A stretch of 64,000 bases of DNA, taken from NCBI GenBank assembly GCA_041640595.1, contig JBEPZY010000001.1:192001-256000 (forward strand), given 5' to 3'. The stretch is from Gemmatales bacterium. GTDB taxonomy: Bacteria; Planctomycetota; Planctomycetia; Gemmatales; HRBIN36. The notes below the pieces were generated by a model. That model made no database searches and had not been told where the DNA came from. It saw only the letters and a program-made list of their open reading frames with translations. Numbering within the stretch: position 1 is the stretch's first letter; each line of letters opens with the position of its first letter. This document shows positions 11,898-21,220 of the stretch, in pieces. The translations under genes were made by a program, and so were the position numbers.

Positions 11898-12506
11898 TCA
11901 TTCCTGAGGCAACAGGTCATCGGGTGGGAGCCGCCGCAATTGTTCCAGAATCAACTCCAAGTAGGATCGCCGTTCGCTCTGCTGCAAGCCGAGCTCCTGA
12001 GCGAGCGATTGCAGGGCACGCCGGGCCGCTGTCAGTTCCGGCTGGCTGGCCCGCGTTTCCAGTTCCACAAACTGACCGAGCCGGCTGACGTTATCCAGAC
12101 ACACTTTCACCGCGTAACCCCGCCAGTCGAGTTCGTAAATCCGCCGTTCTTTGTACAAACCCACCACAATGTGATAGCCGAGGTGCTCCAACAGATCGCA
12201 GGCCTGTTCAAAGACGGCTGGAGACTTGAGTTCTACTTCGATCTCTTCGCGGGTTTTGCTGAGCGGGTCCAGGCGGGGGCCTTTATAGGTAAGCCAGAGC
12301 CGATTCGCTGTGCGTCGCAACCGTAATGCTTCGTCAGTTTTCGCGAAATCGCGATCCGGCGAAGCGAAATAAATATCTTGCTCGTGTTCCAGCCCCAGTT
12401 CGCGTGCGCCGAGCTGGTTCAGCCGTCGGACCACCGAAGCGGTATCGGTGAGCGGATATTTCAATTCCACTTCCAGGCTCGGTGAGTGGGCAGATTCCTG
12501 TGGCAC
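11898..12506 (-). CDS. cyaB: CYTH-domain protein / class IV adenylate cyclase
   Basis: LEVELKY (ExExK), DIYF, ALRLR, LTYKGP, REEIE, LGQFVELE and SYLEL motifs. Confidence 0.8.
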   Translation of the reverse strand: MPQESAHSPSLEVELKYPLTDTASVVRRLNQLGARELGLEHEQDIYFASPDRDFAKTDEALRLRRTANRLWLTYKGPRLDPLSKTREEIEVELKSPAVFEQACDLLEHLGYHIVVGLYKERRIYELDWRGYAVKVCLDNVSRLGQFVELETRASQPELTAARRALQSLAQELGLQQSERRSYLELILEQLRRLPPDDLLPQE

Positions 12507-12741
12507 AGCGTTGCCTCGATCGGTATTGCAGCCAGCCCGGTTGTTTTAGGAATCATTCGTTGCAACTTCACCAGCAGCGTCATCGCCTTGCCAGCTCCCA
12601 AGCGGGACGTTCCCGGTGCCGACGGTATCGTTCGCGCGGCCTCACCAACATCTTAGTCGTCTACGGCTTCCAGGAAAACAGCAGACGCAGCCGAACTGAC
12701 CGGTTCGGCATTGGTGTTTTGGTGCAGGGCGATGCTGCGTT

Positions 12742-12925
12742 GCGAAATGTGTGCCTGGCAATATGGGGAAAGGCGAAATGCGTGGTTCGCAAGACGGGGC
12801 GCCAAAATCTATGCTCGGCAATGCAGGCGGTAGGTAGCAGAAGCGATAGTCAGCGAGGCCATTGGCGCCAAAATCTATGCTCGGCGATGCAGGGACAGCC
12901 AAAATGTTTGCTTCGCAACGCGGGG
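12742..12925. repeat. Five degenerate ~26-30-nt direct repeats
   Basis: ggcgccaaaatctatgctcggc(a/g)atgcagg at 12798-12827 and 12864-12893. Degenerate copies start near 12742, 12773 and 12898. Confidence 0.7.
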
Positions 12926-12939
12926 GGCAGGCACTACCA

Positions 12940-13046
12940 GTCCGCGGAGATGCACATCCATCCGGCGGAAACGCGCATCCACCCAGCGGACACAAGCATT
13001 CACCGGGAGGAGGCACTCACATCCACCAGGCGGAGTCGCGTATGCA
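12940..13046. repeat. Degenerate 21-nt tandem repeat, five units
   Basis: gtccgcggagatgcacatcca / tccggcggaaacgcgcatcca / cccagcggacacaagcattca / ccgggaggaggcactcacatcca / ccaggcggagtcgcgtatgca. Confidence 0.7.
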
Positions 13047-13050
13047 ACCA

Positions 13051-13655
13051 AGAGCGCCGACCGTCAGCCCGCCGTGGTTCGTGCGGAGACGCCCGTGGAA
13101 TGCACCGCGACCAATGTCCGGCGCATAACGACTGCGGAACCAAGAGCGGCGGGCGTCAGCCCGCCGTGGGTTCTGTAGAGACGCGCTTGCCATGCACCGC
13201 GAACGATGTCCGGACACTGACGACTGCGGAACCAAGAGCGGCGGGCGTCAGCCCGCCGTGGTGCGTTAACGCAACTGCGATGGCGTTCGTGTACGGACGA
13301 CCGGCGGGCAGCCCCTGTGCGACGATTGTCGTGTTGCCGCTACAAGCGCGTTTCCGAAGCCACGGCTGGCTTACGCCAGCCGCTCTTCACCGCGTGAGCG
13401 GATGCCGTTGCAGATATGGGTTTTCCATCCGCAGCAGCGTTAGTTCCCCACGGCTGGCTTACGCCAGCCGCTCCTGGTTGTATGGCGTTTGTTCGGTGCG
13501 AAATGCGCAATTTGCGATGCACAGTCGAACATGGAACAAGAGCGGCGGGCGTCAGCCCGCCGTGGATGTGGTTGGGCGAATGTAATCCGCGATGTGCCGG
13601 AAACTCACTTGCAAGTGCGTTACACAAACCACGGCTGGCTTGCGTCAGCGGCTAG
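13051..13655. repeat. REP/BIME-like cluster 1: seven palindromic units in both orientations
   Basis: Plus-strand copies at 13051, 13143, 13235 (92-nt period) and 13539. Minus-strand copies at 13360, 13448 and 13629. Confidence 0.85.
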
Positions 13656-18272: not shown

Positions 18273-18764
18273 ATGCGACGGGCGGGCAACGGCAAAACGG
18301 TGGCTTACGGTCGCAGGCAGCTGGAAAAGCTCCGCCAGCGTTTGCTCCAGCGACAGGAAGAACTCCGACAGATATTGGCCGGGCGATTGGAAAACCTTGC
18401 CTCAGCTCAGAGCGAAGTCCGCGGCGAACTGGCAGATGCTGCCCTGGACTATGGAACTCAGGAGATGAGTTGTTGCATGATGGAACTGGCCGCCCGAGAG
18501 CTCGGCCTCATTGAACGGGCCTTGCGAAAGCTTGCCCAGGATAGTTACGGTCGCTGTGAACATTGCGGTGGGCAAATTGGTCTGCCCCGGCTGGAGGCAT
18601 TGCCTTACGCCCTGTATTGCATCTCCTGCCAGCGCGAGCTGGAGCAAGACGCTTTCGCCGGCAAACAAGACCCGGCCCAATGGGACCGCGTTTATGAAAT
18701 GGAGCGAGCCGAAACCGACGTGGAAGTGGACTTTTCCGACCTCGAAACCGAGGCGGATCGCTGA
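18273..18764 (+). CDS. TraR/DksA-family C4 zinc-finger regulator
   Basis: YGRCEHCG...RLEALPYA.YCISCQ with an N-terminal coiled coil. GGAGG RBS. Confidence 0.85.
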   Translation: MRRAGNGKTVAYGRRQLEKLRQRLLQRQEELRQILAGRLENLASAQSEVRGELADAALDYGTQEMSCCMMELAARELGLIERALRKLAQDSYGRCEHCGGQIGLPRLEALPYALYCISCQRELEQDAFAGKQDPAQWDRVYEMERAETDVEVDFSDLETEADR

Positions 18765-18851
18765 CTGTGTTGGCAGGCGTAGCTCCAATTCACTGGGGCC
18801 GCTTTGCTTGCAGCAAGGCCACCCGTAAGACCGTTGGCAGTGTCGGCAAAT

Positions 18852-18961
18852 GTTGCTCCAATTCTGCCCGTTGCCAGTAACCTGGTAACAGACGCTATTC
18901 GGCAGAGGGAGCGCTCACCAACAAGTTGCTCCGATTCTGCCCGTTGCCAGTAACTTGGTAA
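18852..18961. repeat. Two 37-nt direct repeats separated by a 36-nt unique segment
   Basis: gttgctcc(a/g)attctgcccgttgccagtaac(c/t)tggtaa at 18852-18888 and 18925-18961. Confidence 0.8.
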
Positions 18962-19137
18962 TCCACCAGAATAAACACCTGGGCATCGTCGCCAGTGCTG
19001 AGCCTGCGGCTATCTAGGGCGAAGCTGCTGGCAGCGACGATGGCGCGACGGTCTGCCGGATGGGTACCGACTTGTGGCTCGGTGGAGCTGTGGCGGGACC
19101 GTCAGTATGCTCATCACCCTTTTCAGGAGGGACGAAC

Positions 19138-19707
19138 ATGCCAGGCAAATTGTGCTGTCCGGGCCTGTTGATCATAGCAGGCTGGGTGCTGGTGCTCGGG
19201 TTCGCTCGAGTGCACGGGCAGGGTGGTGCAGTGGCGGAAGGAAAACCGGCACCGAAAGTGGAATTGCCGGCCGTCAATGTCGCCACCGCTTTGCCCGATC
19301 AGAAAGACGCGAAGACGCTTTCCCTGGACGCCTTTCGTGGCAAGAAAAACGTCGTGCTTTTCTTCTTCCCCAAAGCGCTGACCTCGGGGTGAACGATAGA
19401 AAGCTGCGGTTTCCGCGACCGCATTGAGCAGTTTGCTCAGGCTGACACAGTGGTCATAGGCATCAGTGTGGACGATGTGGCTGCCCAGACCAAGTTTGCC
19501 CAGCAGAACCAGCTCAATTTCCCGCTGCTGTGCGATACGGAAAAAACCGTGACCAAAGCCTTCGGGGTGCTAGGCGCTAACGGCTTGGCCCAACGCAAGA
19601 CTTTCGTCATAGATAAGCAGGGAGTCATCCGCAAAATCTATGACAAAGTGGATGTCAAAAAACACCCAGACGAAGTCCTGGCCTGGATCAAGGCGAACCT
19701 GAAATAG
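19138..19707 (+). CDS. bcp: Peroxiredoxin (BCP/PrxQ type), probable selenoprotein with in-frame TGA at 19390-19392
   Basis: ORFs 19060-19392 and 19450-19707 are in the same frame. Read-through gives FFFPKALTSG-U-TIESCGFRD...VIGISVD...FPLLCD...RKTFVIDKQG. AGGAGG RBS before ATG 19138. Confidence 0.85.
19405..19423 (+). promoter_or_regulatory. Candidate bacterial SECIS hairpin
   Basis: TGCGGT-ttccgcg-ACCGCA, a perfect 6-bp stem starting 12 nt after the TGA. Confidence 0.55.
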
Positions 19708-19903: not shown

Positions 19904-20950
19904 TCAGCGGCGGGCGGTATGGCTGACCAGGGTCAGTTGCCGCATCTCGCCCGGTTTCAATTCCAGCGTACTGTACGGGACTTCCCGACCAGAACTGTCG
20001 CGGAGATAGACACGCCAGTTTCCTGCGGCCAGGCGAATGTGGAACCGGCCTTCGTGGTCAGGCTGAACCGTACTGCGCTCGTTGGCCGACTCGTTGACGA
20101 ACACCACCTGCGAAACCTCGCTCCCGGACTCAGGCCGCAGCAGTTGACCAGCGATGGCACCGCGTGAGTCGCTGGGATTTTCCAGGGCGATGCGATCCAG
20201 ACGCGGCACAATGGGTCGGCTCGGGGCCGGTGGCGGTGGAGGTGGAGGCGAGTACATTTGCGGACGCGCCGGTGTGCTTCCCTCCGGCTGAGGCGGTGTG
20301 GGGGGATAGGTTCGCTGATACAGAGGGCTGCCATTCTCTGCGGGGGAACGGAACTCCTGGACGTTTGGGGCGGGTACAGTCGGCTGGCGGGGCGTTTCCT
20401 GGATTGCAGGGGGCGCCACTGTGGCTCCCGTACACGGGTCCACATAGTAGCAAGTCGTTTCCGGTTGCAGATAGCAGCATTGACGATAGGTGGTCACCGG
20501 CACAAATCCGCACCGCCGTACCCAGCTCGTAACCGGCGTGTAATAGGCACGCAACTGATAGGAAGTTACCGGCGTGGCTACCTGCTGGTACGTGCAGGTA
20601 CACGGATCGTAGTAACAACTGTAGCGGTACGACACCACCGGCTCGTAATAATACGAGGTGCGGTAGCTGGTCACCGGCTCGTAGTAAGTCTGGAGACGGT
20701 AGGAAGTCACGGGCTGGTAATAACAGCGCTGGACATAGCGGGTGGTACAGACCTGTTGCGGCGCCGGCGGAGCGCAGGCGACGGTCGGTGCAGGACTGAC
20801 CACCACCGGCGGAGCTTGGGCGACTACCGGCGTCGAGCGGTGGAAGCACGTGACTTGAAAGACATTTTGCCAGCCGGCCCAGGAAATTGTCGGCCAGCAC
20901 AGGGCTCCACCGATCAGCAAACTCAGCTTTAGCCAGTTGCCACGCAGCAT
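19904..20950 (-). CDS. Exported Tyr/Thr/Val/Cys-rich repeat protein with Pro-rich linker
   Basis: Signal peptide, eight YYxPVTSY-like units, a poly-Pro linker and a C-terminal beta-sandwich-like region. Confidence 0.7.
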   Translation of the reverse strand: MLRGNWLKLSLLIGGALCWPTISWAGWQNVFQVTCFHRSTPVVAQAPPVVVSPAPTVACAPPAPQQVCTTRYVQRCYYQPVTSYRLQTYYEPVTSYRTSYYYEPVVSYRYSCYYDPCTCTYQQVATPVTSYQLRAYYTPVTSWVRRCGFVPVTTYRQCCYLQPETTCYYVDPCTGATVAPPAIQETPRQPTVPAPNVQEFRSPAENGSPLYQRTYPPTPPQPEGSTPARPQMYSPPPPPPPAPSRPIVPRLDRIALENPSDSRGAIAGQLLRPESGSEVSQVVFVNESANERSTVQPDHEGRFHIRLAAGNWRVYLRDSSGREVPYSTLELKPGEMRQLTLVSHTARR

Positions 20951-21220
20951 AGCTCGCTCTCCTTTGCTTTGACCCCTCTGATATACACAATAGTCTGGCA
21001 TACGAATTCTCCAAGGGTCAACAATTTTCGCAGCACCGGCATAACTCCACGACGGTGAGAAACTTTACCGGTTATGCAGACTTTGATGGTTCGCGTCGGG
21101 CAGAAAAAGTTGCGTCGGGCCAATTTCGCTTAGGATGATATGGGCGAGTGGGCGTCTCTGGGGCGTTGGCAACTCTTTGCCAGGCCAGCAACGCCAGCGT
21201 GCCGGTCATGCCAATTACAG

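Follow-up and report, generated by a model that had tools for sequence, protein, structure and literature searches.

A TGA-interrupted peroxiredoxin gene of the Gemmatales, very likely encoding a selenoprotein predicted to be exported, with cysteine alleles among near-identical strains

When a peroxiredoxin gene carries a stop codon exactly where its peroxidatic residue should be encoded, is it a broken gene or a selenoprotein gene? The question is raised by a frame on the forward strand of a 64,000-nucleotide stretch of Gemmatales DNA (contig JBEPZY010000001.1, positions 192,001 to 256,000), the whole of which is referred to here as the window. The original prediction, made from the letters of the window, described a single TGA within an otherwise intact 189-codon frame and proposed that the UGA is recoded as selenocysteine (Sec). 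The first part is confirmed, as the TGA is the only internal stop of a frame that runs from ATG to TAG, and the second is supported by the Sec machinery of the genome, the pairing of Cys and TGA codons among homologues, the constraint on the region downstream and a conserved hairpin. We consider it highly probable that the frame represents one intact gene, with the UGA decoded as selenocysteine and with a peroxide-reducing product that is predicted to be exported.

The interrupted frame and its surroundings

The residues around codon 85, read from the window, are FFPKALTSG*TIESCGFR, with the asterisk marking the TGA (Table 1). Protein databases list the gene as two separate halves, of 84 and 85 amino acids, which is the split annotation that had been foreseen. 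The TGA is kept in the DNA runs X3 and X6 (independent, 98–99% alike) as well as in X2, which is a possible source of the window DNA, hence only X3 and X6 are counted as independent. Because these two runs retain the TGA, an assembly error is excluded. Nor is the TGA a product of chance, since 50 of the 109 parsed orthologues have TGA at this position, with TAA, TAG and TGG present in none. The runs that contain this stretch derive mostly from hot springs, and named homologues are labelled Gemmatales or Gemmataceae; the search of named genomes used a pattern that demanded Cys and was blind to TGA copies, and it served for the names of relatives only.

The peroxiredoxin gene stands on its own, flanked by a DksA/TraR-like gene, a label that is based on a four-Cys motif, and by a convergent proline-rich gene. 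The latter (19904-21001, minus strand) encodes a protein with a signal, repeats rich in Cys and Tyr and a linker rich in proline, and it is syntenic with the peroxiredoxin gene in the genus as well as in G004. Upstream of the peroxiredoxin gene, direct repeats with a spacing of 73 nt span 18756-18961, where 37-nt copies that are 95% alike lie at 18852 and 18925 and are preceded by a weaker copy; these repeats occur in other strains too. Elsewhere in the window, the region 12500-13650 is non-coding and contains several copies of one repeated element, which show up when spurious overlapping frames are translated, as peptide motifs that recur.

Table 1. Features of the peroxiredoxin locus (window positions) and further TGA candidates in the genome
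Feature	Position	Strand	Basis
Sigma-70-like promoter match, weak (9/12); not evidence of function	18944..18972	+	1 found, 0.3 expected
Shine-Dalgarno AGGAGG, 7 nt 5' of the ATG	19125..19130	+	sequence; comparable purine runs before the starts of relatives
BCP/PrxQ-type peroxiredoxin gene, 189 aa with one TGA read through	19138..19707	+	frame, Pfam, model
Predicted Sec-pathway signal peptide, residues 1-27; putative cleavage after V-H-G	19138..19218	+	hydropathy, model, orthologues
In-frame TGA, codon 85, peroxidatic position of P78-x-x-x-T82-x-x-U85; predicted selenocysteine	19390..19392	+	
Cys90, predicted resolving cysteine, same helix as residue 85	19405..19407	+	model helix 83-94; role predicted
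Hairpin H1, 7 pairs, pyrimidine loop, -8.6 kcal/mol; possible accessory stem	19405..19423	+	
Hairpin H2, loop GUU at 19431-19433 closed by A-U, 6-7 pairs; best SECIS candidate	19424..19440	+	
Arg153, conserved catalytic arginine of peroxiredoxins	19594..19596	+	invariant in 21/21; aligns with Arg of solved BCPs
Stop of the peroxiredoxin frame, TAG	19705-19707	+	
Seven further TGA candidates (L223-L228, L232)	G000 C6:160081, C1:1156757, C12:11714, C3:649976, C4:310820, C8:50854, C2:6353		

The protein is BCP-like and predicted to be exported

The read-through protein scores 120.7 bits against Pfam AhpC-TSA. Thirteen NCBIfam models were scored and none reached its cut-off with this peroxiredoxin; the best, PRK09437 (BCP), gave 114.5 bits, below its cut-off of 140, and the models for PrxU (NF040737) and Prx-SUH (NF045827) gave 41.8 bits against 270 and 28.6 bits against 298, respectively. 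The peroxiredoxin is BCP-like, yet it lies outside the BCP equivalog PRK09437. In a structure model with Cys substituted for U (mean pLDDT 89, residues 1-29 unstructured and of low confidence), the fold is closest to BCP and other peroxiredoxins (Foldseek), and the best solved relatives found by phmmer are BCPs. The likeness to E. coli BCP and the solved structures 3drn, 5epf, 3hjp and 5enu extends from the best sequence matches to TM scores of 0.83–0.89 by target length. In contrast to the present protein, with its signal-like start and TGA, these BCPs are cytoplasmic, Cys-based and without a signal peptide.

The active-site motif PxxxTxxC(U) is present as P78, T82 and U85, where P78 and T82 are invariant in all 21 aligned orthologues, and the conserved arginine that the original prediction had placed in AQRKTFVID is Arg153, likewise invariant in 21 of 21 sequences. 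Cys90 lies five residues past codon 85, in agreement with the predicted UxxxxC spacing, and residues 85 and 90 share the model helix 83-94; a CxxxxC arrangement on helix 2 is the BCP pattern. Among the orthologues, the second Cys is found at +5 in 91 of 109 and at +4 in the other 18. Reduction of peroxides is predicted for the protein from these features of its sequence. We note that the +4 arrangement occurs mostly in TGA genes (14 of 18; L047, L048, L142, L146, L158, L176-L183 and L189-L192 are among the loci).

Averaged over 11 residues, the hydropathy of the N-terminal segment reaches its maximum of 3.0 at residues 10-20, which bears out its description as signal-like, and such a hydrophobic segment is shared by 104 of the 109 orthologues (47/50 TGA genes and 57/59 Cys genes). 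The five orthologues that lack it look like mis-chosen starts or masked bases, and a lipobox-like motif is seen in one of the 109. On the basis of hydropathy, the peroxiredoxin is therefore predicted to be exported. A selenoprotein with such a start could also be something other than a soluble exported peroxidase, being held by an uncleaved membrane anchor or having relay or sensing of redox state as its main role. V-H-G, the putative cleavage site, departs from the textbook A-x-A, and the related envelope protein PrxL had no peroxidase activity according to PMC3322552. However, most orthologues close the hydrophobic stretch with A-x-A-like residues that are followed by acidic ones, and the P, T, C/U and R residues, absent from PrxL according to the same text, are all retained, such that we regard an anchor or relay as improbable and retain the soluble exported peroxidase as the preferred reading.

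The genome encodes the selenocysteine machinery

A search of the genome for selA, selB, selD and tRNA-Sec had been suggested as a check, and all four are found. In profile searches of the genome, which is 95.5% complete, selA, selB and selD each score above their curated cut-offs, with selA adjoining selB on contig C2 and selD located on C1, and tRNA-Sec with the anticodon UCA scores 75.7 bits against a cut-off of 47. The selD gene itself carries an in-frame TGA, within a CxxU motif. The canonical tRNA-Sec is the sole UCA tRNA found; tRNA-Cys has the anticodon GCA and tRNA-Trp has CCA. Separately, three tRNA genes with anticodons duplicated elsewhere in the genome (Gly, Arg, His) lie on a 6.6-kb contig (G000:C17:6283-6592), which is possibly an element or foreign DNA.

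All 51 genomes that bear the TGA show Sec machinery, with selA found in 9 of 9 and 39 of 42 genomes. The three TGA genomes without a selA match all have a TGA-bearing selD and two of them have tRNA-Sec. One genome, G132, was considered as a case of TGA without Sec machinery, as selA and tRNA-Sec are missing, but this was rejected, since selB lies near a contig end and selD bears a TGA, so that a gap in the assembly is indicated. The codon is not decided by whether the machinery is present, because selA is over its cut-off in 37 of 41 relatives and these include most of the Cys-bearing genomes. In G005, G009 and G018, both selA and tRNA-Sec are missing in the searches, and G028 has broken pieces of selA only (G028:C10:34165-34859), with tRNA-Sec kept.

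A conserved hairpin downstream of the TGA

Two hairpins, H1 and H2, follow the TGA. The bacterial SECIS (bSECIS) consensus, as given in PMC13188914, comprises an apical loop of 3-9 nt starting with G and then G/U, a stem of 4-16 bp, a spacing of 16-37 nt from the UGA to that loop and a model threshold of -7.5 kcal/mol. H2 conforms to the loop and stem pattern, lies at the upper edge of the spacing, with 37 nt from the UGA to the closing A and 38 nt to the loop G, and has a folding energy of -6.7 kcal/mol alone, slightly short of the threshold, and of -15.9 kcal/mol together with H1. H1 was set aside as a SECIS since its loop has no leading G and four of its seven pairs depart only by mismatches; it is also less conserved than H2. 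The 61 nt after the TGA are no more stable than shuffled sequences (z -0.91), and folding of the whole stretch against dinucleotide shuffles likewise gave no signal (z -0.6 to -1.2), such that a signal emerges only across relatives.

Such a signal is seen in the 25 TGA genes (17 genomes and 8 metagenome loci) that encode EQFA at H2. Their codons at H2 are GAG in 25/25, CAG in 25/25, TTT in 23/25 and GCT in 25/25, whereas further downstream in the same genes these codons are used at 50%, 76%, 25% and 10%, respectively. The four inner pairs of H2 are invariant and the next outer pair is UA in 13, CG in 6 and AU in 1, with 5 unpaired, to be read with the caveat that related sequences can beat shuffles in pair covariation without any structure. 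In the Cys-bearing congener G002, H2 is removed by three synonymous changes; the Cys-bearing G004 and L290 keep the H2 core. Another clade of TGA genes has a different hairpin, with the loop GGUC at 25 nt, and this loop is altered in the two Cys sisters of the clade. Local folding relative to synonymous resampling gave a mean z of -1.22 for the 50 TGA genes and -0.17 for the 59 Cys genes, values from kin that are not independent of each other. A simple hairpin rule, which was fixed after H2 had been seen, matches 34 of the 50 genes with TGA and 16 of the 59 with Cys, and within the genome 8 of 11 TGA candidates as compared with 195 of 3000 ordinary Cys codons. On sequence grounds, H2 is the best candidate for the SECIS of the peroxiredoxin gene.

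The machinery and the hairpin also bear on whether UGA85 is read mostly as Cys or as another residue, either because the Sec pathway takes up sulfur during selenium shortage or through near-cognate decoding, which would yield an ordinary Cys enzyme. Cys alleles of the gene are viable and frequent, and the fit of H2 to the consensus is borderline. Against this stand the sole UCA tRNA found, which is tRNA-Sec, with the tRNA-Cys and tRNA-Trp anticodons noted above, the presence of selD, itself a TGA gene, and the presence of RF2; reading as Cys is accordingly very improbable. Decoding of UGA85 as selenocysteine remains the preferred reading in what follows.

Codon 85 is TGA or Cys throughout the order

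An alignment of 21 orthologues was used for a search of the order, in which matches at E 1e-45 or better were obtained in 152 of 267 genomes; among the 150 matches listed, 51 (about one third) contain one TGA. The loci examined (29 plus 80 fetched, 109 in all) cover every row with a TGA and 59 of the 99 stop-free rows. One locus yielded two genes and one locus (G079) was not parsed by the motif, leaving a total of 109 genes, from which L049, a BCP without a signal-like start, is excluded. Column 85 of these genes contains TGA in 50, TGC in 48, TGT in 11 and nothing else, which is the Cys/TGA pairing that the proposed alignment of homologues was expected to reveal; the ratio of 50 TGA to 59 Cys differs from the frequency in the order, as rows without a stop were sampled in part. 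Among the closest metagenome loci, 12 of 16 parsed (21 found) have TGA. The locus L156 (G111:C179:199-1393) carries adjacent tandem Cys and TGA peroxiredoxin copies, which come from different branches of the tree.

On a quick maximum-likelihood tree, calculated with the column masked, at least 12 switches between TGA and Cys are required, of which 9 are forced by well-supported branches; as the tree is unrooted, most of these switches are counted without a direction. On this reading, selenium is dispensable for the peroxiredoxin: TGA and TGC/TGT have replaced each other repeatedly at codon 85, and both states are found among ~98%-identical strains. Outside the order, none of the genomes in a 251-genome sample of the phylum reached E 1e-45, and the clade with the signal-like N-terminus scored best only within the order in this sample. 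TGA-interrupted BCP-like matches, counted whatever the position of the TGA, are present elsewhere in the phylum.

The same TGA is present in congeners with 75–83% protein identity and near-saturated synonymous sites. Downstream of the TGA, dN/dS is 0.058/1.08 and 0.085/1.75 relative to two TGA-bearing congeners, and the region after the TGA is under purifying selection (dN/dS ~0.05).

TGA and Cys codons coexist among near-identical strains

In the eight runs examined, the codon is TGA in X2, X3 and X6 (DNA), TGT in X9, X17 and X18 and TGC in X16 and X20. The contigs with a Cys codon are 97–98% identical, with no other difference at 19393-19457 among the rows listed, and these alleles retain the hairpin intact. 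All five RNA runs examined carry the Cys codon, and a transcript of the TGA allele was found in none of them, which tempers our confidence. Because those five runs are RNA, the peroxiredoxin gene is probably transcribed in populations with the Cys allele; the contigs, which in four runs start between 19007 and 19163, inform on neither strand nor level, and stretches without RNA cover were left unused.

The mixture of codons recurs in protein collections. The 90%-identity cluster of the gene (29 members, of which 15 are listed) contains the 84/85-residue halves alongside full-length Cys forms. A second cluster combines an 85-residue piece with the same end and a 190-residue Cys form with a near-identical N-terminus, and a third has full-length Cys forms beside C-terminal halves; in both, the ends of the pieces suggest a TGA. 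Thus, within one genus, the two codons coexist in no fewer than two of the 90%-identity protein clusters, and a third cluster probably has both as well. Congeners have TGA and the hairpin has decayed in G002, so the simplest and likeliest reading of those Cys alleles that retain an intact hairpin is a recent change from Sec to Cys.

The same strains provide the argument for regarding the TGA as a nonsense allele, that is, a broken copy of a Cys peroxiredoxin that is intact in its neighbours, since strains with ~98% identity have TGT or TGC, which a single base separates from TGA, and five of five RNA runs have Cys. This contrasts with the conservation of the TGA in diverged congeners and the low downstream dN/dS, with the 50 TGA codons and zero other stops among 109 orthologues, and with the synonymous constraint of the hairpin that tracks the TGA, which together render a nonsense allele slightly less probable still than reading as Cys. 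Close relatives with TGC or TGT throughout and a private nonsense mutation were among the grounds that the original prediction had named for its own refutation: very close strains do carry TGT or TGC, but TGA is common to the genus and the order and is therefore not a private nonsense change. Reassignment of TGA to an amino acid in the genome (code 4 or 25), suggested by in-frame TGA in several genes, has a negligible probability, as TGA is the commonest stop of frames of at least 600 codons (213 of 513), prfB (RF2) is above its cut-off and the in-frame TGAs retained after reading fall at redox Cys positions.

Further TGA genes include candidate redox partners

The peroxiredoxin gene is the sole BCP-like gene among 12 AhpC-TSA matches of the genome, the others of which include cytoplasmic Tpx-like, exported PrxL-like and TlpA-like proteins, as labelled from motifs; the exported PrxL-like protein (CxxC) is encoded at G000:C1:418266-418643. 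Catalase and KatG were not found in searches of the genome (95.5% complete). Only one DsbD membrane domain is present, in a DsbD-family gene (L222:301-2442; G000:C2) with a TGA at 320003, which replaces the first Cys of the gamma-domain CxxC and cuts the protein at 628 residues in databases. This TGA, with an identical hairpin, is found in all four genomes of the genus, in contrast to Cys in 26 of 26 other relatives, and was therefore probably gained in the genus. An exported TlpA-like protein with UxxC is encoded by L233:51-551 (G000:C3:187750-188250, minus strand), where a GUU-loop hairpin follows 30 nt on, and TGA is present in 10 of 31 parsed copies among relatives.

Among the members listed, the protein clusters contain only cut forms both for DsbD (15 of 44 members listed; the representative ends at the TGA) and for the TlpA-like protein (7 and 4 members, all listed), and the Cys-bearing congener G002 keeps the TGA in both genes. 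As neither these clusters nor G002 show Cys forms, switching between Sec and Cys appears to be specific to the peroxiredoxin. The peroxiredoxin, TlpA-like and DsbD genes lie on separate contigs, and synteny offers no link between them as partners.

A coding-potential scan for in-frame TGA gave 49 candidates, of which 12 were chosen by eye and read; it missed selD and does not amount to a full selenoproteome. The retained TGAs of the scan sit at redox Cys positions, and C8:70823, C2:536533 and C3:324572 were discarded because, once read, they proved to be ends of genes or shadow frames. Six of the seven further candidates (Table 1) have signal-like starts. The ArsC-like (NF041106) and Trx7/PDZ (NF041199) candidates pass curated selenoprotein models, one is deiodinase-like and four are without a Pfam or NCBIfam family, two of these being paralogues with CFV-U.

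Discussion

Our results suggest a pathway in which SelB with Sec-tRNA would with very high probability bind H2 and decode UGA85, and the signal peptide would very probably carry the peroxiredoxin to the periplasm. In BCPs with a Cys at +5, the peroxidatic residue attacks the peroxide and the second Cys resolves. By analogy with BCP, the Sec85 selenolate, which Thr82 and Arg153 would hold in place, would very probably attack H2O2 or an organic peroxide, with Cys90 resolving to form an Se-S bond. A thioredoxin-like donor in the periplasm could then reduce the enzyme again; the most plausible one is the exported TlpA-like protein with UxxC, which would receive its electrons from the UxxC DsbD, by analogy with the ScsB-TlpA-PprX system of Caulobacter; the genome encodes further thioredoxin-like proteins besides this candidate, and we see the case for the donor chain as evenly balanced.

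Selenocysteine-containing BCPs (TxxU) have been catalogued since 2005. The Sec-Prx family PF00578/COG1225 (Bcp), with TxxU, has 43 sequences in Sargasso Sea data (PMC1088965) and appears again in a 2026 review (PMC13188914). The present protein shares with this family the fold, the PxxxTxxU motif, the Sec/Cys pairing and a hairpin within the coding region, but differs in the signal-like N-terminus, the resolving Cys at +5 or +4 and the presence of Cys alleles within a species cluster. PrxU of Eubacterium (Peptoclostridium) acidaminophilum and Prx-SUH are also Sec-peroxiredoxins, but of other subfamilies. Table 1 of PMC1794560 counts five Cys-to-Sec and no Sec-to-Cys events for Prx, and the same paper describes other families in which a change from Sec to Cys has left a remnant SECIS behind; in contrast to these Prx counts, recent Sec-to-Cys change with a remnant hairpin is the likeliest reading here.

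The closest functional parallel is PprX of Caulobacter crescentus, a periplasmic PrxQ that is reduced via ScsB-TlpA (PMC3322552); PrxL is another ScsB substrate in Caulobacter. Both PprX and the present protein are of the BCP/PrxQ type with a signal sequence, here a predicted one, and the genome likewise has genes for exported TlpA-like and PrxL-like proteins and for a single transporter of the DsbD family. However, PprX is Cys-based, and its description (PMC3322552) places its two cysteines far apart in sequence, whereas here a TGA codon is combined with a second Cys at +5 or +4; moreover, the donor chain proposed here is a prediction, and two of its candidate members carry TGA. By analogy, the peroxiredoxin would work like PprX; it is placed in the Sec-Prx (TxxU) family, and not under PprX, PrxU or the BCP equivalog.

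Within the phylum, a split peroxiredoxin is listed as a Sec candidate of planctomycete P1 in Table S9 of PMC4807772. It resembles the present gene, by description, in its phylum, its annotation as two genes, its Cys homologue and a called SECIS; subfamily and localisation are not given in that table. The catalogued selenoprotein families also include the 'Thiol:disulfide interchange protein', with the motif UxxC. The accessible text of bioRxiv 10.1101/2022.07.06.499078 has nothing on peroxiredoxins, and a literature search that covered few subscription journals returned nothing on an exported Sec-BCP of this order and nothing on Sec/Cys alleles within bacterial species.

For annotation, the finding is a correction: about one third of the orthologues listed in the order (51 of 150) contain a TGA, and the copy in the window is filed as fragments. 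What it adds beyond this are the Sec/Cys alleles among near-identical strains and the candidate donors that bear TGA; neither these nor the SECIS-like hairpin figured in the original prediction. It is conceivable, if rather doubtful, that Sec and Cys are standing alleles within a single hot-spring species, held by selection, with DsbD and the TlpA-like protein staying selenium-dependent. The peroxiredoxin would then flip to Cys under a shortage of selenium or a demand for full output, and with an intact SECIS a single base would restore Sec. Were this true, the envelope peroxide pathway of the genus would be an all-selenium relay with one switchable end.

Why cells pay for selenocysteine where cysteine works is an old question that has been studied mostly across species. 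Here, both codons occur among ~98%-identical strains, and the hairpin, still whole in the recent Cys alleles, has eroded in an older Cys allele. The frequency of the alleles can be compared with the chemistry of the springs, for two enzymes that differ by one atom. If the two codons are indeed standing alleles, the gene would offer a natural system in which to measure selection for Sec over Cys in the wild.
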